Counted from the first letter of the stretch, positions 24,585-44,674 are shown. The stretch: 57,622 nucleotides of DNA from a virus (IMGVR_UViG_3300048837_002337:1-57622); one strand, 5' to 3'. Made by a program: numbers and translations. Notes: generated from the sequence alone by a model not told the origin.

Positions 24585-25544
24585 ATGAGCAACCCGAACT
24601 GGGGCGAAGTGGCGACGGCGACCCTGGCGCACCGCCGCAAGAAGATCGCCGACGCGGTCAGCCGCAACAACATCCTGTTCTACGAACTGAAGCGCCGGGG
24701 CCGCATGCGCACCATCGGCGGCGGGCGCACGATCACCACGCCGCTGATGATGGGGGACGAGAATGCCAACTTCCAGTGGTACATTGGGCGCGAAACGCTC
24801 AATGTCGCCGGCCAGGAAGTCCTGACCTCGGCGGAATTCCCGTGGAAGCAGTATGCCTGCGGCGTCTCGCTGTCGGGCCTCGAAATGCTGCAGAACGACG
24901 GCGCCGAACAAGTCATCTCGATGATGCGGGCTCGCACCATGCACGCCGAGAAGACGATCCAGAACCAGCTTCATTCGGCTGGCCATGGCGACGGCACCGC
25001 CTCCGGCGGCAAGGTCTTCGGCGGCCTCTCGCTCCTCGTCTCCTCGACGGCGGGCGCGACCGTGGGCGGGATCAACTCCGGCACCGCGACCTGGTGGGAC
25101 AACCAGCGCAACGCCATCGGCGGCGTCGCCCCCGACAAGGCGACGATCTACGGTGACATGCTGGACCTGTTCCTCGACACCTGCCGCGGCTCCGACAAGC
25201 CCAACCTGATCATCTCGGATAACGAGTGGTATTCCACCTTCTCCCAGGCCCTGCAGGCGCAACAGCGCTTCATGGACAAGGCCCTGGCGTCGGCGGGCTT
25301 CCCGAACCTCATGTTCGAGACGGTTCCGGTCGTGGCAGACGGCGGCCAGGGCGGCTATGCGCCGGCCGGCATGAAGTTCCTCAACCTCGAAACCATCGAG
25401 ATGATCATGCACAAGAACCGCAACAACGTGGTGCTTGGCGGCCCGCGCCGTCCTCTGACCGAGGACTCGGACACGATCATCATGGCCGGGATGGGCAACT
25501 TCGTGAACGACAACCGGAAATTGAACGGCATCCTGACCCTCTGA
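24585..25544 (+). CDS. Major capsid protein
   Basis: 319 aa; IADAVSRNN...GGRTI..P...AEFPWKQ...QAQQRF pattern; strong codon bias. Confidence 0.9.
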   Translation: MSNPNWGEVATATLAHRRKKIADAVSRNNILFYELKRRGRMRTIGGGRTITTPLMMGDENANFQWYIGRETLNVAGQEVLTSAEFPWKQYACGVSLSGLEMLQNDGAEQVISMMRARTMHAEKTIQNQLHSAGHGDGTASGGKVFGGLSLLVSSTAGATVGGINSGTATWWDNQRNAIGGVAPDKATIYGDMLDLFLDTCRGSDKPNLIISDNEWYSTFSQALQAQQRFMDKALASAGFPNLMFETVPVVADGGQGGYAPAGMKFLNLETIEMIMHKNRNNVVLGGPRRPLTEDSDTIIMAGMGNFVNDNRKLNGILTL

Positions 25545-28839: not shown

Positions 28840-29315
28840 CCCCGCCACCCCCCCGCATCGTCGACGGCGTGCTTTACGGCGCCGATGTGCCGGTCGCGCG
28901 CTGGGTCGAACGCCGCGTCGCCGGCTACACGCTCCACGGCGGCGAGCGCGCCCTGGGCGTGCTGAGGGGCGAGAAACTGGTCGCGGGCGTCATCTACGAC
29001 CGCTTCAACGGCATCCACATCGAGGCCACCATCGCCGCCGAAGCGGGCTCGGCCTGGGCCCGGCGCGCGGTGCTGCGCCACCTCTTCGGCTACCCGTTTC
29101 ACCAGTTGGGCTGCCTGGCGATTTCCGTGGTCGTTCCCTCGACGAACCTGGCCAGCCTGAACCTCGCGACCAAGCTGGGTTTCACCCCGGAGGCCATCGT
29201 CAGGTTCGCCGCACACGACGGGTCGTCGTTGGTAGTGCTCAAGATGTTCCGCGACAACTGCAAATGGATCGGCGATCATGGGCAAGAAGAGCAGCAAGGC
29301 ACCGGCGGCGCCTGA
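28800..29315 (+). CDS. GNAT-fold acetyltransferase-like tail-module protein (start uncertain)
   Basis: VAGVIY...FGYPFHQLG...NLASLNLATKLGFTPE GNAT motif. Confidence 0.8.
   Translation: MGEDREPDGGRDLTPPPPRIVDGVLYGADVPVARWVERRVAGYTLHGGERALGVLRGEKLVAGVIYDRFNGIHIEATIAAEAGSAWARRAVLRHLFGYPFHQLGCLAISVVVPSTNLASLNLATKLGFTPEAIVRFAAHDGSSLVVLKMFRDNCKWIGDHGQEEQQGTGGA
29203..29238 (+). promoter_or_regulatory. Variant late promoter upstream of the ejection genes
   Basis: GGTTCGCCGCAC-N18-TAGTGC, 40 nt before ATG 29278. Confidence 0.5.
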
Positions 29316-30345
29316 TCCGCAGAAGACCGCAGCGGCCGAAGCGCAGTACAACCGCCTCGACACCTACAGCCCGACCGGCTCCGGCGAGCGCTACGGCTAC
29401 ACCGATGCGAGCGGCAACTTCGTGCAGGGCGTGGCGCCGACCGGCATGCAGTCGGCGGTCAAGATCCTTGAGAGCCCGCAGGAGGCGCTTCTGCGCTCGA
29501 TGCTGGAACCGGCCTCGATCTCGCTCACCCAGCGCGTCATCGACGACAACGTCGCCGGCATGCCGGATGCGGCGCGCGTCCAGGACCGCTCCGACGTCGC
29601 CTCCGACATCTTCAACCGCAACTTCTCGCTGATGAAGCCCGCCATCGAGCAGGGCCAGACCCGGCTCCTCACCAACCTGCAGTCGCGCGGCATCCCGATC
29701 GGCTCCGAGGCCTTCAGCGAGGCCTATGGCGCGCAGCAGCGCGAAACCGAGGACACCATCTCGCGCCTTGCGCAGGATGCGAACGTCGCGGCGGGCCAGG
29801 AACAGTCGCGCCAGTTCGGCCTCGACTCCGCGGCGCGCCAGGGCTCCATCGCCGAACTGGTGGCGGCCCTCGGCGGCGGCTACAACCCGCCCTCGCCGGT
29901 GCCCTCCGGCAATGCGCCCAGCATCAACTACTCCGGCATGGTCAACCAGAAGTACCAGGCCGACCTCAACGCCTACAATTCGGCGCAGCAGAGCAAGGCG
30001 CAGTCGGCCGGCGCCCTCGGCTCGATCGCGGGCGGGCTCCTGATGAAGTCGACGCGGACCTCGAAGAGCCTGCACGGGCAGGTCAACATCACCGCCGCCG
30101 CCGATGCCATCCAGAAGATGCCGCTCCTCGTCTGGCGCTACCTCGAAAGCCAGCGCCCGCCGGGCGACCGCGGCGATGTCCACATCGGGCCGATGGCCGA
30201 GGCCTTCCACGGCCTCACCGGGCTGGGCGACGACAAGACCATCTCGGTGATCGACTTCCTCGGCCTTCTCGCCGCGGCGCTGCAGCACACGCTCCTCCGG
30301 GTGCAGATGCTTGAGGCGAAGGAGATGGCGGGGAGGGTGCACTGA
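29278..30345 (+). CDS. Ejection/pilot protein with C-terminal Peptidase_S74 (intramolecular chaperone) domain
   Basis: MGKKSSKAPAAPDP start, Q/A/G-rich body, then S-TRTS-K...WRY...HIGPMAE...coiled coil. Confidence 0.8.
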   Translation: MGKKSSKAPAAPDPQKTAAAEAQYNRLDTYSPTGSGERYGYTDASGNFVQGVAPTGMQSAVKILESPQEALLRSMLEPASISLTQRVIDDNVAGMPDAARVQDRSDVASDIFNRNFSLMKPAIEQGQTRLLTNLQSRGIPIGSEAFSEAYGAQQRETEDTISRLAQDANVAAGQEQSRQFGLDSAARQGSIAELVAALGGGYNPPSPVPSGNAPSINYSGMVNQKYQADLNAYNSAQQSKAQSAGALGSIAGGLLMKSTRTSKSLHGQVNITAAADAIQKMPLLVWRYLESQRPPGDRGDVHIGPMAEAFHGLTGLGDDKTISVIDFLGLLAAALQHTLLRVQMLEAKEMAGRVH

Positions 30346-31049
30346 TGAACCTGCTTGGCAAGATGGGCGGCGGCGCGTCCGGCGGCATGCCCCGCCCGGT
30401 CCCGCGGCCCTCCTCCTTCGACATGCCCGGCCAGGAACGCACAGCCGGCGGCCTCTTCGGCTCCATGTCCTCGCAGCAGCGCTACGACCTCGCCCGCTCG
30501 ATGCTGGAACAGGGCATGGCGCAAGCCTCCGGCTCGACCAGCCCGCTCCTGCAGTTCCTCGCCCCGGTCGTGGGCGCGATGGGCATGGGGCGTCTGGAAG
30601 CCAAGCACGGCGCCGCCCGCGACGCCGAGATCGCCGCGATGACCGGGAAGCTGAACGGCGGCCAGCCGCTCGACCCGGCGATGCAGGGCTATGCCGACAT
30701 CCTCAACAACGAGAACGCGCCCGAGTACCTGCGCACGCTGGCGAAGGAACGGCTTCTCGAAACCATGCGGCCCTCGAAGGCGGGCGGCGGCGGCTCGGCC
30801 GCGCCCGGGCGCGCGCCCTCGAACACCGACGCGCTTCTCGCCTCGATGTTCTACAACGCCGGGCTTGAGACGAGCGACGGCGGCGTCGCGATCACGCCCG
30901 CCGAACAGGCCCGCATCGACGCCGTGACCCGCGCCCGCAGCCGGTCCAGCAGCGTCTCCTACGACTACGGGGCGCCTTCCGTCGGCTCCGAGAGCGACCC
31001 GCTGATGATCTCGCCCACCCCCGACAACGATCCGCTTGGAATCCGCTGA
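30345..31049 (+). CDS. Second ejection protein
   Basis: G/A/M-rich; ends DNDPLGIR; coupled on both sides. Confidence 0.7.
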   Translation: MNLLGKMGGGASGGMPRPVPRPSSFDMPGQERTAGGLFGSMSSQQRYDLARSMLEQGMAQASGSTSPLLQFLAPVVGAMGMGRLEAKHGAARDAEIAAMTGKLNGGQPLDPAMQGYADILNNENAPEYLRTLAKERLLETMRPSKAGGGGSAAPGRAPSNTDALLASMFYNAGLETSDGGVAITPAEQARIDAVTRARSRSSSVSYDYGAPSVGSESDPLMISPTPDNDPLGIR

Positions 31050-34000
31050 TGGCTGACCTGACGATTGCCGACGTTCGCGCCAAGTTCCCGCAGTACGACG
31101 ACCTGTCGGACCAGCAGCTTGCGGACGCGGTGCACCAGAAGTTCTACGCCGACGTGCCGCGCCCTGACTTCTACGCCCGGATCGGCCTCGCGGTGGCGCC
31201 CTCGGCCGCCAATCCGACCGCGGCCCCGGAAGACACCGCCGGCTTCTCCTCGGATCTCCTCGCGGCAATGGGTGGTAGCACCCCGGCACCGCCCAGGACG
31301 CCCGCCCCGGCGCAGATCGACGCGCCCGCCGCGCGCCCGATGCAGCCCGGAAGCCTCATCGAGGCGATGACCGGGCATGACGCGGCCCCGGTGATCGACC
31401 GGACCCGCCCGCCGAGCCCGCCCGTGCGCCCGCGCGAGGGCGGGCTCGAATTCGGCATGATGGGTGGTGCCTCGCCGGAGACGGAGGCCTGGGCGCGGCG
31501 CGAGATCGCACGTCAGGAGGCCGAACGCATTGATTTGGTTCGACCGAAGGACTCCCCCGGCATTGCCCCGGCATTGCAGCGGCAAGCCACCACCGCCGCG
31601 CCGGACCCGTTCGCGGGCGAGGGCATGGGCGATATGGCCGCCCGTCGTGGCCAGCAGTTCGCGCGCGGCGCCACCACCGTCATCGCCTCGGTGCCGGAGG
31701 CGCTGGAACTTCTCGGCCGCGACATCGTGCGCACGCGCCTGCCGACCTTCAACCAGGCCGGCGCGGCGCTGTCGGCCGAGCGCGAAACCCTTCTCGGGAT
31801 CATCGAGGCCGAGGGCGCGGAGAGCCAGCGCGGCCGTGCCGCCGCGTTGCGGCTGCAGGCGGTCGATGGCGAACTGATCCGCGCCGCCCGCCTCGTCCAG
31901 GAGGACGCGGCGCGCCTCGAAATCCCGCTCGAAGACACCAAGGGCTTCAAGGCCGGGAAGGCGCTGCGCGCCGCCTCCGAGGAGACGTTCGGGACGCCCG
32001 ACCCGCGCGACACCGGCTTCTGGGCCAAGCTGGCCGAGGGCGGCGGCAGCGTCGCGGGCTTCGCCGGCGCCTCGCTTCTCGGCGCCCCCCTGGGCCCCGG
32101 CGGCGTCCTCCTCAGCGGCGGGCTGACGGGTGCCGCGACGAATTCTTCGCAACTATACCAGGAGGCCATCCAGGCGGGTGCGGACGAGGAAACCGCCCTG
32201 CGCGCGGCGCGCATCGGCGGCCTCGTCGGCTCCTCCGAGGTGCTGCCGATCGGGCGGGCGCTGAAACTCCTGCCCAAGGGCATGCGCAACAAGGTCGGCG
32301 GCTTCTTCTTCAAGCGCCTCACCCATATCGCGGAATCGGCCGGCGAGGAAGCGGCGCAGGAATTTGCGATGCAGGTGGCCAACAACTGGGTTGCCAAGGG
32401 GTTGTATGACCCGGAGCGCGGCTGGTTCGATGGTGCAGGCGAAAGCGCCCTGATCGGCGCCATCCTCGGCGGCGGCATGGGTGCCATCGGCTCCGCGCGT
32501 GGCGAGGGCAAGGCCGACCAACTGCCCATGCGCACGCCGGACGAACCGCGCGAGCGGCAACCGCAGCAACCGCCCGCGCCGCTGACCGACCCGCTCCTGG
32601 CGGCGATGGGCGCTCCGGCACCTGAAGCCCCGGCTCCTGCGCAGCCCGCGCCCGCGCAACCGCAGGCCCCGGCTCCGGAGGCGGCACCGGTCCAGCCCGC
32701 GGCTACAACAAAGGCGCCGGAAGCAGCACCCGCGGCGCCGGAAGCCCAGCCGCAGGCCGATGCCGGCCGCTACGAGATCATGGACGAGGTCGAGACGGTC
32801 GACGGCGAGACGCGCCCGACCGGTCGCAAGGTCCGCATCGACATGGAGACAGGACAGGCGTCCGTGGTGGACGCCAACGAGGCCGCGGCGGGTTCCGACG
32901 CTGCAGGCGCGCCTGGTGGCGCTGATGCTGGTCAGCAAGGCCAGGAGAGCCAGCCGCAGGGCAGGGAGGCGAAAGGGGTGACGTCGCCCGCGCCCGCGGC
33001 TGGCGGCGCGCGCCCGGCGCCGCAGCGCAAGTTCCTCTCCCACGAGGAGACGCTGGCCATCGAAACCGACCCCGACACCTTCCAGTACAAGGGCGGATCG
33101 GACACCGAGGGCGTCACCAGCGCCCTCAAGGGCGTCAGCCGCTTCGATCCCAACCGCGCCGGCCAAGTGGTGATCTTCGAGACGAAGGACGGCCGCCGCA
33201 TCGTCGCCGACGGCCACCAGCGCACCGGGCTCGCCCGCCGCATGGCGGATGCCGGGCAGGAGGATGTCGGCGGCATGGCGGCGGTGATCTACCGCGAGGC
33301 CGACGGCTACACGCCCGAGGAGGTGATGGCGCTCGCCGCGCTGAAGAACATCGGCGAGGGCTCCGGTTCGGCGGTCGATGCCGCCCGCGTCCTGCGCAGC
33401 CGCAGCGAGACGATCGAGGATCTGGGCCTGCCGCCGAATTCCGCCCTGGTGCGCGATGCCGAGGGGCTGCGCCGCCTCTCCGTCGACGCCTTCGGCATGG
33501 TGGTGAACGGGGCGGCGAGCGAGCAGCACGGCGCCATCGTCGGCCGCGCGGTGCCGAACCAGGAGGTGCAGGCCAATATCCTCGGCCTGCTTTCCCGGCT
33601 GAAGCCCGCGAACGCCTTCCAGGCCGAAACCATCGCCCGCCAGGCGGCGGCCGAGACGACCACCGAGACGCAGGACTCGCTGTTCGGCCCCGAGGAGATC
33701 GCCACCAGCCTCTACCTCGAACGCGCCAAGGTGCTCGACGGCGCCGTGAAGGCGATCCGCGACGACATCCGCACCCTGACCGACCGCGCCGATGCGATCA
33801 CCGGCGCCGGTAACGTGCTGGCGAAGGACGAAAACACCCGCCGACTGGACGCAGACGCGAAATTGCGCGACTATCTGACGTCCCAGGCCAACATGAAGGG
33901 GCCAATCAGCGATGCACTCGGACAAGCAGCCCGCGCCGTCAAGGACGGAACGCCCGTCGCAGCGGCAACTCGACGCTTTGTCGAAGATGTCCGCAGAGCG

Positions 34001-37000
34001 CTTGAAGGCGATGGGACAGGAGGCCAAGCGTCTTCGGGAGGAAGAGGCGAGCCTGAAGGCCAGCCGCGCCAAGAGCCGGTAAGCCCGCCCGAGGGCGATC
34101 TGCTGGCCGCCATGGGGGCGACGCCGCAGACGCAGACGCCCGCCGCGAAGCCCGAACCGGATCTTCTCGCCGCGATGGGGGCGGCACCGGCGAAAAACCC
34201 GGAGCCGGATGCGAAGGCGAAGGCCGAGGCCCAGGTCAAGGCGAAGCAGTCGAAGATGGGCACGACGACGCCGCAGGGCGACGCCGGTCCGCTCTTCAAC
34301 GCGCAAGCCGACATCGAGGACGCCAAACCCGCGCTCGCGACGACAGCCGCCGTGCGTCGCGCCGCTCTCATCGACGAACACACCAAGGGCCCGGAAACCC
34401 CGCCGGAGGAATTCGCCGACCTCTTCGACCAGCCCGAAGGGCAGAAGCTGATCGCGAAGATGGAGGGCAAGACCCCGAAGGAGCGCCGCGCCATCGCCGA
34501 TGACTGGGTGCTGAAGACGGGTCGCAAGGCCGGATCAGAACACCTCGTCGTCTTCGACGCGCAGGGCGTGCCGGTCATCATCGCCCGCGGCGGTCGCGCC
34601 TCCATCTGGGTGCCGGAATGGGCCTATTTTGCCGGCGACGCCGGCGATCTCGGCTATGCGACCCACAACCACCCCGGCGACGGCGGGCTGTCGGCGCAAG
34701 ACCTCGTCTCGATGATGGCGATGCAGATCGAGATCAAGGCGATGGGGCACGCGGACGTCGTCCACGGGGCCAAGCCGGGTCCGGTCAAGCCCAGGAACGG
34801 GCTGCCGCCGCACAGCGAACGCACGCTCACCTTCAGCGAGGCGATCCGCTATGGCGCCGACCGCGTCCACGCCGGACTTCAGGACCGCATCAATGGCCTG
34901 ACGGGAGACGCCTTCACGCAGAGGGCGGCGCTCTACAAGCGGGCGCACTATGCCATCCTCAACGTCATCCTTCACCGGATGGGCATCATCGAATACACTG
35001 GCGACGCCGACAGGGTGATCGCCGAAGCGGGAGTTCAGGTCGATGACTTCATCGAAACAGTCGAAGCGGTCGTTCTTGATGGGTTTGGACGGGCCGGATT
35101 CCTTGTCTCCGAGATCCGAGATCACCTCCGCGCTGGAAAGCCTGAAGGCGATGGAGCCGACACCGGCGGTCGAGGCCGAGCGGAAGCGGCTGAACCGGCT
35201 GATGGAGACGGCGACCGAGGCGGGCGGGTTCGCCAGGACGGCAAGCCAGAGGTAAAGGACGACTTCGGCGCCGCGCTCGATGACCTCTTCGGCGCGAAGC
35301 CGGAGAAGCCCGCGCGCTCGAAATCAGACATCGCGAAAGACCTGGGCGACATCTTCGGCGAGGATGGCGACCTCTTCAACATGCCGGAACAGCCGAAATC
35401 CGGCCTGACGGCGCGCGAGCGGGCCGAGATCGAGGCGCGCCAGCGGCAAAGCAAGATCCGCCGCGCCAACCAGACCCGGGTCGAGGACGACCTGCAAAGC
35501 CTCTTCGGTCACGACCGCCAGGGCAACCTGTTCGGCGAGGGCGACATCGACGAGGCCAAGTACGCGCGCGCTGCGCCGGTCTTCAAGGAGGCCCTGGCCG
35601 ACATCGACGTCGCGAACACGCCGCGCAAGGACGTCTTCATCGCCATGATCCGCCCGCTCATCGCGGCCGGGCTCAATCGCCAGGCGATCGAGAACATGCG
35701 CCCCTACTTTGAGCGCTTCTTGAACGACGTCGACCGTGGTATCATCTCTCTTGCGAAGGGAACGGAAGATGCACAACGCACCGACGGCAATCTGGAACGC
35801 GATCGCGGAGACGCAGCCGCTCAAGACGGCCTGGGCAAAGCAGATGTTCCCGCTGCCGGAAGACCTGATGGAAAAGGCGCTGGAACGGGAAGAGGCGCGC
35901 CTGATCAAGGAGACGGGCGACAGCCGGGTGGCGAGCGCCTACCTTCTGGTGATGCCGCTCCTGTGGGAACAGAAGGCAATCCGCCGGTTCAAGGAAGCCG
36001 GGGGGCCGGGAAACAGCCTGCCGATGGTGGAAACCGCGCAGCAGGCCGCAATCCTCGCGAGCCGGGAATATCCCCTGACGAAAGCGCAACTGAAGCTACT
36101 GTCCGACATGCTCAGGACGGCCCCGAACTAAAGGGCCGCGCCGCCGCGCAACGCGCCGCCGACGAGCGGGCCCGGCGCGGCATCAAGCTGGGCGACGAGG
36201 AGGACGTGCGGGCCACCCTGCCGCTCCTCAAGCCCGAACAGCAGGACGACGTCGTCAAGATCGAGCGCCGCTTCGCCAAGCCGGACGGCCACGGCATGAT
36301 GCTGACCAACGGCACCGGCACCGGCAAGACCTATTCCGGCGGCGGTGTGATCAAGCGCTTCGCCCAGGCCGGCAAGACCAACATCCTCGTCATCGCCCCC
36401 TCCCAGGGCATCCTCGACCACTGGGCCGAGGCGCTGCACGATCTCGGGCTGAAGGCGAGCAAGCTGGACGACACGAAGACGGCCGGCGAGGGGATCGTGC
36501 TGACCACCTACGCCAACGTCGGCAAAAACCGCGCGCTGGCCTCGCGCGAATGGGATTTGATCGTTTCCGACGAGGCCCACAAGTTGAGCCAGAACGCGCA
36601 AGGCGACGCCACCTCGGCGCTCGACACGCTCCGCGCCATCTCGCACCGGCCGTCCGACCTCTGGCGCAAGTCCGAGATGATGCGCGCCGCGGAATGGGAC
36701 CGGCTGCGGGCGATGAAGGACGGCGAGGCCAAGACCGCGCTCGCCCATCGCCTCTACGAACAGCGCAAGCAGGACGTCGAACGGCTCTCGCAGCGCCCGC
36801 GCGCGAAGGTGCTCTTCCTCTCGGCCACGCCCTTCGCCTACGTCAAGAACACCGACTATGCCGAAGGCTACCTCTTCGACTATCCGAAGGATGGCCATGT
36901 CGGGAACAGCCGCCAGGGCGGGCAAGCGCTCTTCATGGTGGAGAACTTCGGCTACCGCATCCGCTATCACAAACTGACCCGGCCGGACGCGAACGTCGAC

Positions 37001-40000
37001 ACCGGCGTCTTCGAGCGCGAGTTCCACGAGAAGCTGAAGCGCGAGGGCGTGCTGTCGGGCCGTCACCTCGATGTCGAACCGGACTACGAGCGCCGCTTCG
37101 TGCAGACCGAGGACGCGCAGGGCACGCTGATCGACGACATCCTCAAGTTCATCCGCGAACAGGCCTACGGGCAGGGGCCGGACAAGGACGCCTATGCGGC
37201 GCTTCTGACCTCTGTCGGGAAAAGTTTCAACTATCTCAAGCGCATGCAGCTTCTGGAAGCGATCAAGGCGAAGATCGCGCAGCAGGACATCGACAAGCAT
37301 CTGGCCATGGGCCGGAAGGTCGTCCTGTTCCATGATTTCAACCGGGGGGGCGGATTTAACCCCTTCGCGCCGCACGACGAGGCGGCGCTTGAAGGCTATG
37401 CGAAACTGCTCGCGGCGCGCCCAGAGGTCGCCGATCTGAACTTCCGCGGCTACCTGCCGCCGGTCCAGGAACTGAAGCAGCGCTACGGCAAGCGCGCTGT
37501 GATCTACAACGGCACGATCCCGAACAAGGAGCGCGACAAGGCGAAGACGGCCTTCAACACCGACGGCTCCGGCACCGACATCATGATCGTGCAATCGGCC
37601 GCCGGCGAGGCCGGGATTTCGCTCCACGACATCAGCGGCGGCCACCAGCGCGTGCTGATCAACCTCGGCATGCCGACCCGGCCGACGACGGCGCTGCAGG
37701 AGGAGGGCCGCATCCGCCGCGAGGGCTCCGTCTCCGACGCGCTCTTCCACTACTACACCATCGGCACCACCTGGGAGCGCCAGGCCTTCGCCCGCAAGAT
37801 CGCTGAACGCTCCGGCACGGTCGAGAACCTGGCGCTGGGCAACGAGGCGCGCACCATCCGCGACGCCTTCATCGACGCCTATGAGGAGGCTTCGCCCTGG
37901 GCCCCGGGCGAGGGTGACGGCAAGGGCGGCAAGGAGCGCGACCGGGCGGTCGCCAAGGCCTCGCCCTACGAGATCGCCAAGACCCACTACTTCGGGCGCA
38001 TGAAGACGGCGGGCCGGCGCGACCAGCGCCAGGGCATCGACTTCTACCCGACGCCGGAACCGCTCGCCTTCAAGATGGTGGAATGGGCGCAGATCCGGCC
38101 CTACGAGCGCGTCCTGGAACCCAGCGCGGGCGATGGCTCGATCGCGCGCTACTTCCCCGACCACTCCGACCGCACCATCGTGGAGCCGTCGGTGGAACTC
38201 CTGTCCAAGGCGGAACTCCGGGCGATCGGCGCGCGGGCGGTAAACTCGACCTTCGAGGCCTATCACGTCGTCAACAAGCATCATGCGATCATCATGAACC
38301 CGCCCTTCGGCTCGGGCGGCAAGACGGCGATCGAGCATCTGGCCAAGGCCGCCACCCATCTCAGGCCCGGGGGGCGCATTGTGGCGCTCATCCCGACAGG
38401 GCCGGCGGCCGACAAGCGCTTCGATGCCTGGTGGGACAGTGACGAAAGCGAAGGCCTGTGGCGTTCCGCCGAGGTTGCGCTTCCTGCCGTCACCTTCGAG
38501 AAGGCCGGGACGGCGGTCGCCGCGCGCATCCTCATCATCGACAAGGTCGATCCGGTCGCCAGCGACCTCCTCGGCTCCACCAGCCGCATCAACATGACCG
38601 GCGCGCAGAGCATCGGCCAGTTCTTCGACCGCCTCGAAGGCATCGCGGCTCCGGCCCGGCCGAAGGCAGCGCGCGAGGCGGTGGAAGAACTCCTCGACGA
38701 GCAGGAAGAGGCCAACCCGGCCCTGGCCGCGCCCGAACGCCCGGCCCAGCCGCTGCCGGATCAGGGCTTCAGCCTGGCGCAGACCACGCACGGCAAGACC
38801 GGCGAGGCGCTGTTCGTCGCCACCGCCACCGCGCGCGTCAGCGACGAGGCCTTCAAGGCCACGGTCGCGGTCGCGAAGCGTCACGGCGGCTGGTACTCGT
38901 CCTTCCGCGGCAAGGGCGCGGTTCCCGGCTACCAGTTCAAGAGCGAGGCGCAGCGCCAGGCCTTCCTCGACGACATGGGGAAGCCGACGACCGGGCTGCA
39001 GGAAGAGGCCGCCGGCTTTGCCCGGCCGGTCTTCTTCTCGCCGCTCCTGCGCGCGGTCGAAGGCGCCAAGCAGGCCCGCGCACCGGCGAAGGACTGGAAG
39101 GCGATCATCGCCAAGCTGCCGGGCGTGAAGAAGGCGGAAATGGAGTGGACCGGCGTTCTCGACTGGCTCGACACCGCCGACGGCCAGGTCGAACGCGCCG
39201 ACATCGTGGCCTTCCTGCGCGCCAACCAGATCGAGATCATCGAGGAGCGCCAGACCGAGGAGGGCGAGGACTTCGATCCGGACGAACAGGCGGCCGAGGA
39301 GGCGCTGGGGCACGACCTCATCGAGGAGCCGGACTTCGAAATCTCCGATGGCGAGCCGCTCTATCCGGACGACTGGGACGACGAGGCGGAGTTCTATCTC
39401 GACGAGGCGCGGGAAACGCTGGCCGAGGAGGCGATGGAGGACTGGGACGAGGAGGAGATGGGCGAATTCGATCCCGCGTCGATCGCCGATGACGAGGTCA
39501 TGGACCTCGCCAGGCAGATCGCCGAGGAGCGCTACGAGCCGCATGAGTATTCCGTCACGCTCTACGACCGCAACGGCGATGCCTCCTACGACGGCTACTG
39601 GAACGCCGACGACCGCAGCTATTACTTCCCCGCCCTGTCGGACGAGAACATCGACCACAGCGATGCGCTGAACCTCGCCACCGCGCCGATCATGGAGGCC
39701 CGCCAGAAACAGGTCGAGGAGAAGCTGAAGGAGTTGCTGGCCGAGCACAAGGCCAGCCAGGAGCGCCAGAGGGCCGAGGACGGCTTCGCGGTGGTCGGGT
39801 CGGCGCGGTGGCGCACCTACACCCAGGGCGGCGGCGAGAACTACCAGGAGGTGCTGCTGCGCATCCCGCTCCTGCACAAGATCGGCAAGAACCGGACTGT
39901 GCCCGTGCAGGACGTGGCGGAACTCAAGCGGATCGAATCCGAGATGGACCGCCTCATCAAGGAGAAGGGAACCCGTGTAAAGTACACCGAAGAGTACATG

Positions 40001-43000
40001 GCCCTGCAACGGCAGTCGACGGCGCTCACCGATGGCGTGATGGGCAAAATCCCCTTCGTGCAGTCCTCGCACTTCAGCCGCACCAACGTCGTCGTGCATG
40101 CGCGGATCAAGGACCGCCAGGACAAGGCCGGCAACCGCGTGCTCTTCATCGAGGAAATCCAGTCCGACCTGGCCTCGAAATGGCGGGAGAACACCGAGAG
40201 TGTCGAGGTCACACTTCGCAGACGCGCCCTTGAGGAGGCGTTCGAGAATCTGGCGGCAGCCGACAGGGAGGACTGGAACATCCTCGAAAACGCCGTGTCG
40301 GAACATGCCAGGGCAGCCGGCGCGAACACATGGAAGGCTTCGGTGAATGAGTTTTTGGGGAACTCCACCCCGAGCGAGCCGGACTATTTCCACAGCGACA
40401 AGACGCGCGCCGCTGTAGCCTCGTTCAATGCCGATCCGAAGGTGCAGCGCGCGGTCGAGCGGATGAAGCGCAGGGGAGGCGAGAGGACGCAGTTGAGGGG
40501 TGAACTGACCGCCCTCGGCACCGAGAAGCGCATCGACCCGATGGTGCCGCAATCGCCCTTCTCCGACCCGGAACAGTACACCGTCATGGTCAAGCGGCTC
40601 CTGCGCGAGGCGGCGGCCAGGGGCTACGGCAAGATCGCCTGGACGCCCGGCTACATGCAGGCCGAGCGCTGGAACAACGCCGCGCAAAGCGTTGTGTCGC
40701 GGATCGAATGGGAGCCCTCGACGTCCGGCACCGCGGGCGCGTCCCGCGACGTGCTCTTCCTCATGGCCGGCGGCGGCAGGGAATTTTCCGCAACGGTCGA
40801 CGCCGAGGGCAAGATCCTCGCGACCGATGCCGAACCGTTCCAGGGCAAGACCCTGCAGGCGATCATCGGGCCTTCGCTGGCCAAGCAGGTGCTTGGCGAG
40901 GAGAAGGGCAACGTCGGCGGGCAGAAGATCGTGCTGCCGGATTCCGGCTATGCCATCGCCTATGACGGCCACATCCGCCGCGCCGTCGACAAGCTGACCC
41001 GCGTCCACGGCGTCAAGGCCGAGCCCGACACCTCGATCTACGACCTGATCACCGACCGGCTGGGCGCGCGCTCGACCTATCTCGAAGGCCTGACCACCGA
41101 GGAGATCATCGACCGCATCGCCAATGTCGAGCCAGCCCGCACCGAGCGGCTGCGCAACCTTCTGCGCGAAGACCCGACCAACGAGCCCTATATCCGCTCC
41201 ATCGCCACGGAGCCGATTTCCGACGCCGCTTTCGTGCGCCTCTTCCGCGACAGGATGGAGGACGGCCCGCAAGTCTGGTCGGTCGAGATCAACGACGCGC
41301 TGCGTGCCGCGGCGACCGAGCCGATGCCGCTTTTCCAGCGCCAGGCGCTGCGCCGCACCAGGCCGGTTTCGCGGGAAACCATCCGCCGCATGATGCCCAG
41401 GCTCAGGGCCGAACTGGACCGCCTCGATCTGAAGCGCGTGCACCTCTTCGAGGTCGACCCGGCGCGCTATCCGATGGGCGGGCAGGACGACTGGCAGGGT
41501 CTCGTCCAGCACGGCGAGAACGGCGATCTGGAAATCATCATCGGCGCCTCGCTCGATCCGATGAAGACGATCCATCACGAGGTTATCCACATCCTGCGGG
41601 GGATGAACCTGTTCACGCCCGAGGAGTGGCGCGCGCTCGAACTATCGGCCGCGCGCAAGTGGGTGAAGGAATTCGACATCGTCGCGCGCTATCCAAACCT
41701 CACGCCCTCCGAGCAGATCGAGGAGGCCATCGCCGAGGCCTTCGCCGAGGCCGTGGCGACGAAGAAGGCGCCCGCCGGGTCGGCCGTCATCCGCGCCTTC
41801 AACAAGATCGCGCGGCTCCTCAAGGCCATCGCCAACGTCTTCCGCGGCGCGGGCTTCAACACCGTCGAGGACGTTTTCGGGCGGGTGATCGCGGGCGAAC
41901 TCAGCCGCCGCAACGCCGCCAACACCGGCGCCCTGGCGATGCAGCGCGGCAGCAAGGCACAAGCCGCCCGTGTTCCGAACCGCCAGGCCCGCGCCCACAT
42001 GGCAACCGCCATGGGCGGCAACGCGGCCCATATCCCCGACCGGCGCGTCTGGGAGGAACTGACCCGCACCGGGGCGCCGATCTGGCAGCGCCTGCGCCAG
42101 GGCGCCGGGGCCGCGCATGACGCCGTCGACAAGGCGCGGATCAAGATGCAGGACCGTTTCCTGCCCGTGCTCCGGGCCCAGGAGGCGGTGGTGCGCACGA
42201 CCGGCGCCACCCTCAGCGCGGACCAGAACGCCTACCTGAAGGAAACCACCTTCTCCGGCAAGGTCGGCCGCCACCTCTTCGAGATCGACGAGGAATACAC
42301 CAAGCCGATCATCGACATCATCGCGAAGACCAAGGGCGCGCTGACCTCGGAGGCCGTCGGCGAATGGCTCTACGCCCGCCATGCGATCGAGCGCAACGCG
42401 CGCATCGCCGCCATCAACCCGCGCATGCCGGACGGCGGGTCGGGGATGACGGATGCCGAGGCGCAGCAGATCCTCGCCGATGCCGCCGCGGGCCCCTTCG
42501 CGGCCGATCTGGACCGGATCGGCACCCTGATCGACGGGCTGCGCGAGCGGACGCTGAAACTGCGCGAGGATGCGGGCCTGATCACGCATCGCGAGGCGAA
42601 CCTGTGGCGCCACCAGTACCGGCACTATGTCCCGCTCAAGGGCTTTTCCGAGACGGATCACAGCGAAGCCGTGCTCGACATCGCCGGGGTCGGGCGCCGC
42701 TTCAACACCCGCGGGGCCGAGTCGCGCCGCGCGCTGGGGCGTCGGTCGGAGGCCTTCAACCCGCTTCAGGCGGCGATCACCCAGGCGCAGGAAGTGTCCA
42801 TCCGCGCCGAGAAGAACCGGGTCGGCCAGGCGCTCTACAATCTGGCAAAGGATTTCCCGTCCAAGGCGCTATGGTCGGTGAAGAAGCCGAAGATGAAGCA
42901 GGTCTACAACCGCACGACCGGCCTCGTCGAAAGCCGTCTCGAAGATCCGGTATCGCTCCTGATGGACCCGAACGAAATGGCGGTGAAGATTTCCGGCAAG

Positions 43001-44674
43001 GAGGTGCGCATCGTCTTCCACGATCCGCGCCTGGCACAGGCCGCCGGCAGCGTCGGCGCCGACCAGATCGGCTGGTTCGTCGGCTTCATGTCGATGGCCT
43101 CCCGCTTCTTCAGTTCCATCAACACGATGCTCGACCCGGAATTCGTGGTGCGCAACGCGGCCAGGGACATGACGGCCGCGCAACTGAACATCCGCAACTT
43201 CGGCGAGGCCGACCGCAACGCCATCGCGAAGGCGATGATCCGGAACTGGCCCAAGGCCTTCGTCGGCGCCTTCCGGGGCCAGGGCTACAAGGCCGACAGC
43301 ACCTGGACGCGCTACTATCGCGAATTCGAGAAGGCCGGCGCCAAGGTGTCGTTCTGGAAGCTGGAACAGCCCGAGGCGGGCAAGTCGGATCTCGACAAGC
43401 GCATCCGCCTGGCCGGCGGCTCGCGCCTGGGACCGGTCAGCCGCTTCGTGCGCCTCTCGACCCGCGACAATCCCGTGCTGGGCTTCATCGAGCGGACCAA
43501 CCTCGCGGTCGACAACGCCGTGCGCCTCGCCGCCTTCGTCGCCGCCCGCCAGCGCGGGTGGAGCGCCCAGGACGCCGCGGCCCTCTCGAAGAACCTCACG
43601 GTCAACTTCAACCGCCGCGGCGAATGGGGGGCGACGATCAACGCGCTCTATCCCTTCGCCAATGCCGCCACCCAGGGCTCGCAGGTGCTCCTGCGCGCGA
43701 TCACGCACAAGCGCATGGCCAAATATACCATTGGCCTCATTGCCTTGGGTGTCATTCTTGATGCAGTCAACGCGGGCCTTTCCGGCGAGGATGACGACGG
43801 CGAACTGGCTTATGACAAGATCCCCGACTTCAAGAACCAGACCAACATGGTGGTGATGCTGGGGCCCGACTCCGACAACGGCGCGACGCTCTGGATGCCC
43901 TACGGCTGGAACCTCTTCCCCTACATCGGCCAGCAGATCGGCAAGGTGCGGCGCGGGGTGAAGGGGATGGACGAGGCGCTGGGTGATGTCGCCACCGCCT
44001 TCTTCACCGCCTTCTCGCCGATCCAGGGCGGGTCGCTTCAGTCTGTCATCACGCCCACCATGCTCGACCCGATCAACGAGATGGCGATGAACGAGGACTG
44101 GCTGGGCCGCCCGATCCGGCCGGAGAACGCCTATTCCGACTACGGGCCCGACGCCTACAAGTTCTTCGGCGGCGCCTCGGAGGCCTCGAAACTCCTCGCC
44201 GACACGATGAACCGCGCCACCGGCGGCACCATCGGCGAGAGCGGCGCGGTCGACATCTCGCCGGAGTACATCGACCACTTCTTCGGCTTCATCACCGGCG
44301 GGGCAGGGCGCTTCGTCGGCCGCGTGTCCGACCTGGTGGCGAAGGCCGCGGCGGGGAATTTCGAGGAGATCGAGCAAAGGGATGTTCCCGTCGCGCGCTC
44401 GCTCTACTATGAAACCGGAGACTGGCTCGACCGCGACCGCTACTATCGCTTCCGCGACGAGGTCAGGGAAGCCAATGCCGCGGCGAAGGCCTATCAGGAG
44501 GCGGGGGACAGGGTGCCGGATCATGTGAAGCGGCTCGCGGCGCTCTATCCGACGATGCTGCAGGCCGAACGGGCGATCAAGGCGATGAAGAAGGCCGGTT
44601 CCCAGGACCAGGGCAAGGTGTTCATCGCCTTCAACCGTCGCTTCCTCTCGGTGATGGGGAAGCAGGGTGAGTAA
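31049..44674 (+). CDS. 4541-aa polyvalent internal-virion/ejection protein (DarB-like): ParB-like, JAB/MPN, SF2 helicase, N6-MTase, LPD-like, HExxH peptidase and LPD38-like domains
   Basis: DGHQR (~33210), E...HNHP...S..D (~34540-34700), GTGTGKT (~36310), DEAH (~36570), SATP, QEEGR (~37700), EPSAGDG/NPPF (~38120-38310), IEEIQSD (~40150), HEVIH...EE (~41580-41725). Confidence 0.92.
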   Translation: MADLTIADVRAKFPQYDDLSDQQLADAVHQKFYADVPRPDFYARIGLAVAPSAANPTAAPEDTAGFSSDLLAAMGGSTPAPPRTPAPAQIDAPAARPMQPGSLIEAMTGHDAAPVIDRTRPPSPPVRPREGGLEFGMMGGASPETEAWARREIARQEAERIDLVRPKDSPGIAPALQRQATTAAPDPFAGEGMGDMAARRGQQFARGATTVIASVPEALELLGRDIVRTRLPTFNQAGAALSAERETLLGIIEAEGAESQRGRAAALRLQAVDGELIRAARLVQEDAARLEIPLEDTKGFKAGKALRAASEETFGTPDPRDTGFWAKLAEGGGSVAGFAGASLLGAPLGPGGVLLSGGLTGAATNSSQLYQEAIQAGADEETALRAARIGGLVGSSEVLPIGRALKLLPKGMRNKVGGFFFKRLTHIAESAGEEAAQEFAMQVANNWVAKGLYDPERGWFDGAGESALIGAILGGGMGAIGSARGEGKADQLPMRTPDEPRERQPQQPPAPLTDPLLAAMGAPAPEAPAPAQPAPAQPQAPAPEAAPVQPAATTKAPEAAPAAPEAQPQADAGRYEIMDEVETVDGETRPTGRKVRIDMETGQASVVDANEAAAGSDAAGAPGGADAGQQGQESQPQGREAKGVTSPAPAAGGARPAPQRKFLSHEETLAIETDPDTFQYKGGSDTEGVTSALKGVSRFDPNRAGQVVIFETKDGRRIVADGHQRTGLARRMADAGQEDVGGMAAVIYREADGYTPEEVMALAALKNIGEGSGSAVDAARVLRSRSETIEDLGLPPNSALVRDAEGLRRLSVDAFGMVVNGAASEQHGAIVGRAVPNQEVQANILGLLSRLKPANAFQAETIARQAAAETTTETQDSLFGPEEIATSLYLERAKVLDGAVKAIRDDIRTLTDRADAITGAGNVLAKDENTRRLDADAKLRDYLTSQANMKGPISDALGQAARAVKDGTPVAAATRRFVEDVRRALEGDGTGGQASSGGRGEPEGQPRQEPVSPPEGDLLAAMGATPQTQTPAAKPEPDLLAAMGAAPAKNPEPDAKAKAEAQVKAKQSKMGTTTPQGDAGPLFNAQADIEDAKPALATTAAVRRAALIDEHTKGPETPPEEFADLFDQPEGQKLIAKMEGKTPKERRAIADDWVLKTGRKAGSEHLVVFDAQGVPVIIARGGRASIWVPEWAYFAGDAGDLGYATHNHPGDGGLSAQDLVSMMAMQIEIKAMGHADVVHGAKPGPVKPRNGLPPHSERTLTFSEAIRYGADRVHAGLQDRINGLTGDAFTQRAALYKRAHYAILNVILHRMGIIEYTGDADRVIAEAGVQVDDFIETVEAVVLDGFGRAGFLVSEIRDHLRAGKPEGDGADTGGRGRAEAAEPADGDGDRGGRVRQDGKPEVKDDFGAALDDLFGAKPEKPARSKSDIAKDLGDIFGEDGDLFNMPEQPKSGLTARERAEIEARQRQSKIRRANQTRVEDDLQSLFGHDRQGNLFGEGDIDEAKYARAAPVFKEALADIDVANTPRKDVFIAMIRPLIAAGLNRQAIENMRPYFERFLNDVDRGIISLAKGTEDAQRTDGNLERDRGDAAAQDGLGKADVPAAGRPDGKGAGTGRGAPDQGDGRQPGGERLPSGDAAPVGTEGNPPVQGSRGAGKQPADGGNRAAGRNPREPGISPDESATEATVRHAQDGPELKGRAAAQRAADERARRGIKLGDEEDVRATLPLLKPEQQDDVVKIERRFAKPDGHGMMLTNGTGTGKTYSGGGVIKRFAQAGKTNILVIAPSQGILDHWAEALHDLGLKASKLDDTKTAGEGIVLTTYANVGKNRALASREWDLIVSDEAHKLSQNAQGDATSALDTLRAISHRPSDLWRKSEMMRAAEWDRLRAMKDGEAKTALAHRLYEQRKQDVERLSQRPRAKVLFLSATPFAYVKNTDYAEGYLFDYPKDGHVGNSRQGGQALFMVENFGYRIRYHKLTRPDANVDTGVFEREFHEKLKREGVLSGRHLDVEPDYERRFVQTEDAQGTLIDDILKFIREQAYGQGPDKDAYAALLTSVGKSFNYLKRMQLLEAIKAKIAQQDIDKHLAMGRKVVLFHDFNRGGGFNPFAPHDEAALEGYAKLLAARPEVADLNFRGYLPPVQELKQRYGKRAVIYNGTIPNKERDKAKTAFNTDGSGTDIMIVQSAAGEAGISLHDISGGHQRVLINLGMPTRPTTALQEEGRIRREGSVSDALFHYYTIGTTWERQAFARKIAERSGTVENLALGNEARTIRDAFIDAYEEASPWAPGEGDGKGGKERDRAVAKASPYEIAKTHYFGRMKTAGRRDQRQGIDFYPTPEPLAFKMVEWAQIRPYERVLEPSAGDGSIARYFPDHSDRTIVEPSVELLSKAELRAIGARAVNSTFEAYHVVNKHHAIIMNPPFGSGGKTAIEHLAKAATHLRPGGRIVALIPTGPAADKRFDAWWDSDESEGLWRSAEVALPAVTFEKAGTAVAARILIIDKVDPVASDLLGSTSRINMTGAQSIGQFFDRLEGIAAPARPKAAREAVEELLDEQEEANPALAAPERPAQPLPDQGFSLAQTTHGKTGEALFVATATARVSDEAFKATVAVAKRHGGWYSSFRGKGAVPGYQFKSEAQRQAFLDDMGKPTTGLQEEAAGFARPVFFSPLLRAVEGAKQARAPAKDWKAIIAKLPGVKKAEMEWTGVLDWLDTADGQVERADIVAFLRANQIEIIEERQTEEGEDFDPDEQAAEEALGHDLIEEPDFEISDGEPLYPDDWDDEAEFYLDEARETLAEEAMEDWDEEEMGEFDPASIADDEVMDLARQIAEERYEPHEYSVTLYDRNGDASYDGYWNADDRSYYFPALSDENIDHSDALNLATAPIMEARQKQVEEKLKELLAEHKASQERQRAEDGFAVVGSARWRTYTQGGGENYQEVLLRIPLLHKIGKNRTVPVQDVAELKRIESEMDRLIKEKGTRVKYTEEYMALQRQSTALTDGVMGKIPFVQSSHFSRTNVVVHARIKDRQDKAGNRVLFIEEIQSDLASKWRENTESVEVTLRRRALEEAFENLAAADREDWNILENAVSEHARAAGANTWKASVNEFLGNSTPSEPDYFHSDKTRAAVASFNADPKVQRAVERMKRRGGERTQLRGELTALGTEKRIDPMVPQSPFSDPEQYTVMVKRLLREAAARGYGKIAWTPGYMQAERWNNAAQSVVSRIEWEPSTSGTAGASRDVLFLMAGGGREFSATVDAEGKILATDAEPFQGKTLQAIIGPSLAKQVLGEEKGNVGGQKIVLPDSGYAIAYDGHIRRAVDKLTRVHGVKAEPDTSIYDLITDRLGARSTYLEGLTTEEIIDRIANVEPARTERLRNLLREDPTNEPYIRSIATEPISDAAFVRLFRDRMEDGPQVWSVEINDALRAAATEPMPLFQRQALRRTRPVSRETIRRMMPRLRAELDRLDLKRVHLFEVDPARYPMGGQDDWQGLVQHGENGDLEIIIGASLDPMKTIHHEVIHILRGMNLFTPEEWRALELSAARKWVKEFDIVARYPNLTPSEQIEEAIAEAFAEAVATKKAPAGSAVIRAFNKIARLLKAIANVFRGAGFNTVEDVFGRVIAGELSRRNAANTGALAMQRGSKAQAARVPNRQARAHMATAMGGNAAHIPDRRVWEELTRTGAPIWQRLRQGAGAAHDAVDKARIKMQDRFLPVLRAQEAVVRTTGATLSADQNAYLKETTFSGKVGRHLFEIDEEYTKPIIDIIAKTKGALTSEAVGEWLYARHAIERNARIAAINPRMPDGGSGMTDAEAQQILADAAAGPFAADLDRIGTLIDGLRERTLKLREDAGLITHREANLWRHQYRHYVPLKGFSETDHSEAVLDIAGVGRRFNTRGAESRRALGRRSEAFNPLQAAITQAQEVSIRAEKNRVGQALYNLAKDFPSKALWSVKKPKMKQVYNRTTGLVESRLEDPVSLLMDPNEMAVKISGKEVRIVFHDPRLAQAAGSVGADQIGWFVGFMSMASRFFSSINTMLDPEFVVRNAARDMTAAQLNIRNFGEADRNAIAKAMIRNWPKAFVGAFRGQGYKADSTWTRYYREFEKAGAKVSFWKLEQPEAGKSDLDKRIRLAGGSRLGPVSRFVRLSTRDNPVLGFIERTNLAVDNAVRLAAFVAARQRGWSAQDAAALSKNLTVNFNRRGEWGATINALYPFANAATQGSQVLLRAITHKRMAKYTIGLIALGVILDAVNAGLSGEDDDGELAYDKIPDFKNQTNMVVMLGPDSDNGATLWMPYGWNLFPYIGQQIGKVRRGVKGMDEALGDVATAFFTAFSPIQGGSLQSVITPTMLDPINEMAMNEDWLGRPIRPENAYSDYGPDAYKFFGGASEASKLLADTMNRATGGTIGESGAVDISPEYIDHFFGFITGGAGRFVGRVSDLVAKAAAGNFEEIEQRDVPVARSLYYETGDWLDRDRYYRFRDEVREANAAAKAYQEAGDRVPDHVKRLAALYPTMLQAERAIKAMKKAGSQDQGKVFIAFNRRFLSVMGKQGE
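33912..34082 (+). CDS. Nested +1-frame gene A, 56 aa (MHSDKQPAPSRTERPSQRQLDALSKMSAERLKAMGQEAKRLREEEASLKASRAKSR)
   Basis: GAAGGGG RBS. By hand count the +1 frame has GC3 47/56 while the host frame has only 29/56 over the same codons. Not listed in the ORF track. Confidence 0.6.
   Translation: MHSDKQPAPSRTERPSQRQLDALSKMSAERLKAMGQEAKRLREEEASLKASRAKSR
35043..35255 (+). CDS. Nested +1-frame gene B, 70 aa
   Basis: GGGAG RBS 9 nt upstream; amphipathic helices; host frame degrades to a G/D/R linker. Confidence 0.65.
   Translation: MTSSKQSKRSFLMGLDGPDSLSPRSEITSALESLKAMEPTPAVEAERKRLNRLMETATEAGGFARTASQR
35769..36131 (+). CDS. Nested +1-frame gene C, 120 aa (MHNAPTAIWNAIAE...)
   Basis: GAAGGGA RBS; globular helical composition (W, L, M, E, K); host frame is G/R/D/A low-complexity here. 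Confidence 0.75.
   Translation: MHNAPTAIWNAIAETQPLKTAWAKQMFPLPEDLMEKALEREEARLIKETGDSRVASAYLLVMPLLWEQKAIRRFKEAGGPGNSLPMVETAQQAAILASREYPLTKAQLKLLSDMLRTAPN

Follow-up and report, generated by a model that had tools for sequence, protein, structure and literature searches.

At least two, and probably three, small genes lie in the +1 frame inside spacers of a giant polyvalent DarB-like phage gene

Small genes embedded in a larger gene on the same strand are already a known kind, as exemplified by Rz1 in Rz and by phiX174. In the lambda-type spanin genes, Rz1 is a complete small +1 gene embedded in Rz, and the two products are functionally linked. In the overprinted genes of phiX174 (B in A, E in D, and K), the nested gene is usually young, has arisen de novo and saves space in a tiny genome. 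DarB of phage P1 is a helicase-methylase virion protein, the packaging of which needs the accessory Dar, Hdf and Ulx proteins. Here, we analyzed the viral sequence IMGVR_UViG_3300048837_002337 (the window, meaning the whole stretch of 57,622 nucleotides), in which a giant gene (the host gene, read in the host frame) encodes a polyvalent, DarB-like protein in the virion module of a podovirus-like prophage. At least two, and probably three, small genes lie in the +1 frame inside flexible spacers of this 4,541-codon gene. The host gene, the three nested open reading frames (ORFs) and the Shine-Dalgarno (SD)-like sites preceding them are:

31049-44674, + strand: giant polyvalent (DarB-like) virion-module gene in the host frame, 13.6 kb, 4541 aa (product P0001), based on ORF call, Pfam and gene position.
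33895-33901, + strand: SD-like sequence GAAGGGG, 10 nt 5' of the ORF1 ATG, inside a conserved host motif.
33912-34082, + strand: ORF1, 56 aa, +1 frame, ATG start, basic (pI 10.6), a probable nested gene.
35029-35033, + strand: SD-like sequence GGGAG, 9 nt 5' of the ORF2 ATG; the aligned homologues have GGAG/GAGG-type sites upstream of their ATG.
35043-35255, + strand: ORF2, 70 aa, +1 frame, ATG start, with homologues, gene for a small protein predicted to form a helical hairpin.
35755-35761, + strand: SD-like sequence GAAGGGA, 8 nt 5' of the ORF3 ATG; a GGAG/GAGG-type site is present in almost all loci.
35769-36131, + strand: ORF3, 120 aa, +1 frame, ATG start (GTG-start version, 35736-36131), gene for a predicted seven-helix globular protein of an undescribed family.

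The initial annotation of this region, made from the sequence, had placed the three ATG-initiated ORFs in a common +1 frame, each behind an SD-like sequence, and both statements are correct: the giant gene starts at 2 modulo 3, all three ORFs start at 0 modulo 3, and GAAGGGG, GGGAG and GAAGGGA were found. The site of ORF1 is not independent evidence, because it sits in the conserved host motif. In the host frame, the T of the ORF3 ATG falls at the third position of an Asp codon. The hand count of A/T-ending host codons over ORF1 (27/56) proved exact on recount, the corresponding values being 31/70 over ORF2, 67/120 over ORF3 and 591/4541 for the whole gene. The G+C content of the three host codon positions was 0.69/0.48/0.87 for the whole gene, and a sliding-window check confirmed that the third-position value (GC3) is lost over the ORFs, falling from 0.87 to 0.44-0.56 only there. 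A scan with 120-nt sliding windows, in which a stretch was flagged if host position 1 was richer in G+C than position 3, returned four stretches. Three of them are the ORFs (33899-34108, 35009-35278 and 35729-36178), with a G+C content of 0.38-0.68 at position 3 and 0.78-0.93 at position 1. The fourth (32519-32968) was rejected as an artefact of CCN and GCN codons in a Pro/Ala/Gln-rich low-complexity stretch, where no coding-like +1 ORF is found.

Open +1 stretches of at least 45 aa are numerous in the giant gene and its relatives, so at 67% G+C the length of an ORF proves nothing by itself. Among the same-strand alternative-frame ORFs of at least 50 aa inside the giant gene, just these three passed a filter for coding-like G+C periodicity. 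The description of the host frame over the ORFs as a G/R/D/A linker was also borne out, with G, R, D, A, P, E and Q making up 73-79% of its residues there versus 56% gene-wide. Over ORF3, the host frame contains 79% of these residues and 7% hydrophobic ones, whereas the nested protein is 31% hydrophobic; the host frame here suits a flexible spacer. The drop in host GC3 recurs in homologues, over ORF3 in 15 of 15 loci (p 7e-5 to 1e-28), over ORF2 in 8/8 and over ORF1 in 8/10 (p<0.005). Positional G+C runs failed to discriminate in lower-G+C relatives.

Comparison across loci identifies ORF3 as a real nested gene. Its relatives were found by back-translated pattern searches, which covered metagenomes and reference genomes as well as viral contigs. 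The counts leave out L010, L030 and L070, in which the match is partial and lies at a contig end, and also duplicate loci (L017=L013, L021=L020, L026=L027, L037=L036, L054=L053, L065=L064, L069=L067, and L032 and L033, which nearly equal L031). In 18 of 18 loci (about 15 distinct), a full-length homologue with 41-69% identity is nested in a -1-frame ORF of 2263-5383 aa. The ATG and the stop of these homologues are aligned, and a GGAG/GAGG-type site is located 7-13 nt upstream; the exception is L012, in which the match begins at residue 8 and the frame is open upstream. In the metagenome loci ORF3 was nested in 34/40, seven of which are short contigs with the host frame reaching both ends. Inspection of three cultured phages (Parlo, 45A6 and Skulduggery) showed the ORF, its ATG and its SD sequence in each of them, and ORF3 is kept down to genomes with 49-58% G+C. 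No giant-gene locus was examined in which ORF3 was not nested.

The differences between ORF3 homologues follow the nested frame. In tblastn comparisons, nested versus host frame gave 168 versus 78 bits and 148 versus 47 bits. Pairwise differences by nested codon position were.387/.337/.485, compared with.379/.314/.567 in a host-only control stretch. The nested positions follow the pattern of an ordinary gene, which makes the third position of the host codons the least variable one over ORF3. Ratios of nonsynonymous to synonymous differences per site (pN/pS, Nei-Gojobori) for the 14 closest of 105 pairs were 0.06-0.73 in the nested frame and 1.0-2.9 in the host frame, and the mean pN/pS proportions were.360/.541 and.432/.323, respectively. 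The closest pair (L027/L028) showed a pN of.011 and a pS of.190 in the nested frame, versus.064 and.022 in the host frame. In 60-codon windows, which have a high noise floor, ORF3 alone stood out, and over ORF1 the host frame scored higher.

The ORF3 product is predicted by AlphaFold2 (AF2; 37 sequences) to be a seven-helix globule, with a mean predicted local distance difference test score (pLDDT) of 91.9 and a predicted template modelling score (pTM) of 0.86. The 37 relatives gave scattered chance matches only in Pfam, none of them matched TnpV (PF14198) at E≤1, and the ESM Atlas returned no usable match. A profile search of 1.84 billion representative sequences revealed 457 clusters at E≤1e-3 (281 at E≤1e-10). 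Most of the best 150 of these 457 clusters are proteins of about 115-130 aa in which the domain spans residues 1-120; the longest has 566 aa and none is giant. Twenty-three close database proteins are unnamed and come from short contigs (for example P0024, from a 10.9-kb contig), as expected if the nested ORF is called as a gene only where the giant gene is truncated.

The assignment of ORF2 as a nested gene is well supported by its homologues, which occur in the frame of ORF3 in 7 of 15 loci and in seven more metagenome loci. In the 13 aligned sequences, the ATG lies 10-20 codons before a GLDG(P/L)DS.SP(R/K) motif, the C-terminal part carries ATE.GG, and the stop follows soon after. Searches with tblastn at seven loci gave E values of 3e-11 to 3e-4 for the nested frame, versus 0.002 or worse for the host frame. 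For the three closest pairs, pN/pS was 0.40-0.46 in the nested frame and 1.1-1.8 in the host frame.

ORF1 is moderately likely to be a nested gene, judging from its composition and conservation of openness. Its first 35 or so codons share their DNA with the conserved C-terminus of a host domain. All 13 loci that carry the host motif KG.IS[DE]AL have an open +1 frame of 60-69 codons, which finishes with a basic tail. The 13-locus mean of host GC3 was 0.72-0.90 upstream, 0.42-0.65 from the motif to the nested stop, and 0.72-0.85 after it. Over the first 33 codons, host pN/pS was 0.45-0.58 in four of the eight pairs listed and 0.72-1.41 in the other four, with nested values of 0.79-1.92. Synonymous identity was barely raised (.57 versus.52). 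Since pN/pS loses power under double constraint, ORF1 was rated as probable. A nested pN/pS below 1 was obtained for ORF3 (0.06-0.73) and ORF2 (0.40-0.46); the values for ORF1 (0.79-1.92 over its first 33 codons) are not decisive. The broader claim of the initial annotation, that the +1 ORFs are selected genes overprinted on linkers, has strong backing for ORF3 and good backing for ORF2, with suggestive evidence only for ORF1.

The host reading is retained across the nested genes. The expected openness of the -1 frame was calculated for each locus from the sequence of the nested protein and the codon usage of the host gene itself. Across ORF3 this expectation was 0.0013-0.26 per locus, and the frame was open in all 27 loci; L066 (P=0.0000, an artefact), L067 and L068 were left out of this count. 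Across ORF2, the expectation was 0.03-0.46 per locus and the frame was open in 12 of 12 loci. Codons ending in T, the only ones able to create host-frame stops, are scarcer in the nested genes (1.7-11%) than in the host (6.6-22%), and the host frame stays open because the nested genes avoid them. Thus, the host frame over ORF3 is held open by selection, and this is real dual coding.

Which of the two readings is older was assessed from codon usage and from ORF3 domains outside giant genes. Third-position bias is genome-typical in the nested frame and is missing from the host frame over the ORFs. The ORF3 domain also occurs in frame and not overlapped, in a 414-aa protein (L053, 5620-6864) and in a 454-aa ORF on L055. 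The former is encoded on an island that also specifies an integrase, a VapE-like protein and an SNF2 helicase; this helicase has only generic superfamily 2 (SF2) motifs in common with the helicase of the window. In P0148, P0153, P0156, P0180, P0233 and P0250 (288-566 aa), the domain is N-terminal and the C-termini are variable. The C-terminal parts of the free ORF3-domain proteins comprise a membrane region or acidic repeats, and in one case a second copy plus DUF6794. The combination of a conserved N-terminal domain and a variable tail is more suggestive of binding or an adaptor function than of an enzyme. The occurrence of the domain in frame elsewhere makes it older than the overlap and, together with the genome-typical codon usage, the host-frame linker the derived reading. 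The view that the nested proteins are the young, overprinted partner was thus not upheld. In L019, L020, L024 and L029, ORF2 stops only 67-94 nt before ORF3, as adjacent small genes do.

The nested genes are linked to particular modules of the host protein. In the window, ORF3 is flanked by two host-frame modules:

35256-35768, + strand: host-frame module of 513 nt between ORF2 and ORF3, with normal host codon bias (not flagged in the positional G+C windows).
36227-37846, + strand: SF2 (ResIII/SNF2-like) helicase domain in the host frame, always downstream of ORF3 (Pfam).

The module at 35256-35768 is missing from the four loci with the short gap between ORF2 and ORF3. The linkage proposed in the initial annotation was confirmed: ORF2 was detected in 13 of the 14 loci carrying the host domain that precedes it and in none of the 16 lacking that domain, ORF3 goes with the helicase, and ORF1 is open in every locus with its motif. 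Because ORF1 and ORF2 overlap the end of their own host domain, the co-occurrence of these two is partly automatic. Helicase motif I lies about 35-60 host codons past the ORF3 stop in 22 of 28 loci; in the remaining six another module is inserted in between, and ORF3 is thus not always the immediate neighbour of the helicase. The inserted host-frame module (L019, L020, L024, L029, L038 and L052) begins with LTPAQQLAAIR, and some copies carry KVVDADGKPLV.YHGT.

A tblastn search of 50,697 phage records with ORF3 retrieved eight records from six phages, namely Ruegeria phage 45A6, Serratia phage Parlo, Pseudomonas phage Skulduggery, Klebsiella phage vB_KpnP_ZX1, and Vibrio phages 1.232.O and D274. 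In the three phages checked by coordinates (Parlo, 45A6 and Skulduggery), the match lies in the +1 frame of the giant coding sequence. Searching with the helicase region of the window, at E≤1e-30 and again at E≤1e-8, returned exactly those eight ORF3 records. All eight GenBank records annotate only the giant coding sequence under the match, in agreement with the suspicion that gene callers miss the nested genes.

It is highly likely that these ORFs are real nested genes lying across low-complexity spacer of the giant host gene. In the arrangement we propose, small complete genes in the +1 frame would span the spacers between enzymatic modules, and since each has its own SD sequence, ATG and stop, independent translation from the same late mRNA would follow, as for Rz1 inside Rz. 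The nested frame would carry the amino-acid information, and the host frame would be a G/R/D/A/P spacer that needs only to stay open. The nested reading would be the older one, separate module genes having been fused by reading through the small genes between them. Because each small gene never separates from its neighbouring module (for ORF3, the helicase-methylase part), its product would probably work with that module and could, in assembly or once injected, act as its helper, adaptor or regulator; we consider such a functional tie a real possibility that falls somewhat short of being probable. For ORF3, we favour a product acting as a helper or adaptor of the helicase-methylase module, by analogy with P1, the small Dar proteins of which are needed to load DarB. 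A more far-reaching idea, 'helper-in-the-linker', would have each enzymatic module of giant injected phage proteins welded to the gene of its own small partner (chaperone, adaptor or regulator), placed out of frame across the spacer; this we put forward as tentative. Its further parts, that module and helper are inseparable in shuffling and that ORF3 founds a new fold for the DarB-like helicase-methylase, are similarly speculative.

Several observations weigh against nested genes or give no pointer to their function. The case for translation is drawn entirely from sequence. Matches in raw off-frame tblastn searches were frequent across the whole giant gene and occurred in all frames of the controls, so that alternative-frame similarity alone means little. 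In searches of Pfam and PHROGs, the three peptides matched only DUF5595, below the cut-off (E 0.072); the ORF3 fold had no match at E≤0.001 in PDB or BFVD (Foldseek), and ten longer ORF3-domain proteins contained no informative fusion partner in Pfam, the only match being DUF6794 in one of them. The codon-position contrast of ORF2 is weak overall (.472/.424/.481), its 5' part overlaps the conserved host motif RLGRAGF, and its AF2 model, a helical hairpin, is of moderate confidence (pLDDT 66.6). For ORF1, the start lies inside the conserved host motif KG.IS[DE]AL at the end of the host domain, openness is expected by chance in some loci (per-locus P 0.03-0.68), and tblastn scores are equal in both frames. 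ORF1 also lacks a nested-frame purifying signal: the first 33 codons are selected in the host frame, and pN/pS for the remainder is ambiguous in both frames.

The simplest rival holds that there are no nested genes, only chance open frames and a compositional shadow in a 67% G+C gene. The many +1 stretches of 45 aa or more, the frequent off-frame tblastn matches, and the false positional G+C signal of a Pro/Ala-rich stretch are what it would predict, and for ORF1 openness is unsurprising in some loci and pN/pS uninformative. For ORF3 and ORF2 it conflicts with the conserved ATG, SD sequence and stop, with nested pN/pS below 1 where the host value is at least 1, with the confident predicted fold, and with retention in 49-58% G+C genomes; for ORF1 the 13-locus dip in host GC3 matches the ORF boundaries. 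The chance reading is already refuted for ORF3, and we regard it as very improbable for the set. Programmed frameshifting, with the ribosome shifting +1 in and back out or ending truncated at the nested stop, could draw on the longer proteins in which an ORF3-like domain sits in frame (L053-type and L055-type). However, a nested-frame stop 1-2 codons before the conserved ATG in L013/L017, L049 and Parlo leaves no room to shift in, the SD sequence and ATG are conserved, and none of the best 150 profile matches is a giant protein with an in-frame domain, making this mechanism highly unlikely. The ORFs might also be relics, in which an ancestral +1 frame was remodelled by compensating frameshifts and is no longer translated; such out-of-frame remodelling is reportedly documented in bacteria, and the nested frame does have the older, genome-like codon usage. 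Against this, purifying selection in the nested frame continues in close relatives (pN/pS 0.06 for L027/L028) and start, SD sequence and stop are maintained in dozens of diverged loci, so that we give relics very little weight.

A further rival denies that the giant gene is one gene and takes ordinary small genes to be flanked by separate module genes, the host frame being open by accident. At the high G+C of the window, a -1 frame can indeed stay open by chance, with P up to 0.26 for ORF3 and 0.46 for ORF2. This explanation appears remote in view of the host frame being open in all 27 ORF3 loci at per-locus expectations down to 0.0013, the depletion of T-ending codons, and the absence of any host-frame stop or restart in any nested locus. 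The nested genes could instead form effector-immunity or chaperone cassettes, as the initial annotation had proposed, each nested protein binding the adjoining injected domain and silencing it or keeping it unfolded in the producing cell. Strict co-occurrence of each nested gene with its module, products modelled as small helical proteins, and a place beside the module that recalls chaperone-effector and toxin-immunity pairs are in line with this idea. It has to be set against searches of Pfam, PHROGs and Foldseek that revealed no similar immunity, antitoxin or chaperone family or fold, and against the partly automatic co-occurrence of ORF1 and ORF2. The ORF3 domain also heads unrelated proteins outside giant genes, which fits an adaptor equally well, and a need for immunity seems doubtful in a cell that is already lysing. 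We therefore consider an inhibitor or immunity version of the nested proteins possible but unlikely, and retain nested genes with a helper or adaptor product for ORF3 as the preferred reading.

The host gene itself is part of a complete 57.6-kb provirus with 63-72% G+C. Upstream of it, PHROGs identified a large terminase (17406-18959), a portal protein (19027-21279) and a major head protein (24585-25544), as well as a tail protein, an amidase and a virion structural protein (29278-30345). Near the end of the giant protein lies a further domain:

43808-44392, + strand: LPD38 domain in the host frame (Pfam, residues 4254-4448, E 3.4e-43, 148 bits versus a cut-off of 27).

The SF2 helicase of P0001 comprises residues 1727-2266, with ResIII at 1727-1849 (48.2 bits versus a cut-off of 22.5) and Helicase_C. 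The methylase-like region matched Pfam MTS at 17.5-20.4 bits, under the cut-off of 23, and relatives have PF05175. The helicase region is common to at least 1340 database proteins of 2497-7947 aa (E≤1e-20). Cultured-phage relatives are labelled 'DarB-like antirestriction protein' or 'PLxRFG protein' in GenBank. As for the domain labels of the initial annotation, that of the helicase stood (ResIII and Helicase_C). Those of ParB-like and JAB domains were not confirmed, since searches for ParB and JAB/MPN in 32969-33910 and 34400-35041 gave no Pfam match and no PDB sequence match at E≤1; what is left are the motifs DGHQR and HNHPx6SxxD in the host modules before ORF1 and ORF2, which we take to resemble those families. 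A 4515-aa DarB-like protein of phage JC1 is described in PMC9144972 as detected in virions by mass spectrometry. By analogy with it, and from the position of the gene in the structural module, the label 'virion or ejection protein' appears reasonable for P0001.

Additional features of the region and of the giant relatives were recorded. A sigma-70 promoter scan of 33500-36400 found no sites. Directly after the ORF3 stop, on the minus strand, there is a terminator-like hairpin (36135-36152), which is probably due to chance (one site versus a mean of 2.8 in shuffles). Many antisense ORFs opposite the + strand genes have a third-position G+C of 0.9-0.98; this is expected, because they mirror the codon bias of the sense strand, and is no sign of genes. 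A (D/P)LLAAMG motif occurs four times in spacers of the giant protein (31256-31273, 32594-32611, 34100-34117 and 34163-34180; residues 70, 516, 1018 and 1039), two copies lying directly after the ORF1 stop. Similar motifs were seen in just 6 of the 21 homologues examined, and the motif may serve in docking or cleavage. In the giant relatives P0028, P0029, P0040, P0052, P0071 and P0118, Pfam matches to Hom_end or LAGLIDADG_3, together with coverage of only about 90% of the helicase query, suggest an intein within the helicase of these phages.

Database proteins with this type of helicase number at least 1340, with carriers among cultured phages of Pseudomonas, Serratia, Klebsiella, Vibrio and Ruegeria, and in the annotations examined each giant gene appears as one gene only. 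Should the nested genes be expressed, phage gene catalogues lack a family that comprises at least 457 sequence clusters and has a confident predicted fold matching nothing known, and knock-outs and fitness screens of 'DarB-like' genes affect two to four genes at once. Gene fusion would then clearly have laid a spacer over an older gene, whereas overprinting usually runs the other way. The nested genes may also offer a handle on how half-megadalton proteins get ready for packaging and injection.

Full-text searches of the published literature brought up no account of small genes lying within genes of the polyvalent or DarB-like kind. Term searches for overlapping genes, frameshifts or alternative-frame genes within such genes were likewise negative in PMC5512222 and in the JC1 (PMC9144972), Parlo (PMC6606913) and PhiGT1 (PMC10386132) papers. 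The host gene is one of the polyvalent proteins (Iyer et al. 2017, PMC5512222), with LPD38, an SF2 helicase, a methylase-like region and a place in the virion module. It belongs with the DarB-like antirestriction proteins of the Bcep22-like and Parlo-like podophages. By analogy with P1 DarB, small helpers of a helicase-methylase virion protein would be the working model for the nested proteins, although the P1 helpers are encoded by ordinary separate genes. With phiX174, the locus shares same-strand dual coding in a virus, one frame being biased and disordered-looking; here, it is the spacer reading of the large gene that is derived, and genome size imposes no limit. The closest likeness is to Rz1 in Rz, a complete small +1 gene inside a larger phage gene on the same strand, with its own start signals and with both readings retained; an 'embedded class' of spanins is described in PMC9144972 and is named for phage Parlo in PMC6606913. 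Like Rz1, ORF3 and ORF2 each have the whole ORF inside the host gene, a conserved SD sequence and start, purifying selection, and a maintained host reading. In contrast to Rz1 in Rz, up to three nested genes occur per host gene, the host reading is a low-complexity spacer rather than a functional segment, the products are predicted to be soluble helical proteins rather than lipoproteins, and the nested reading is apparently the older one.

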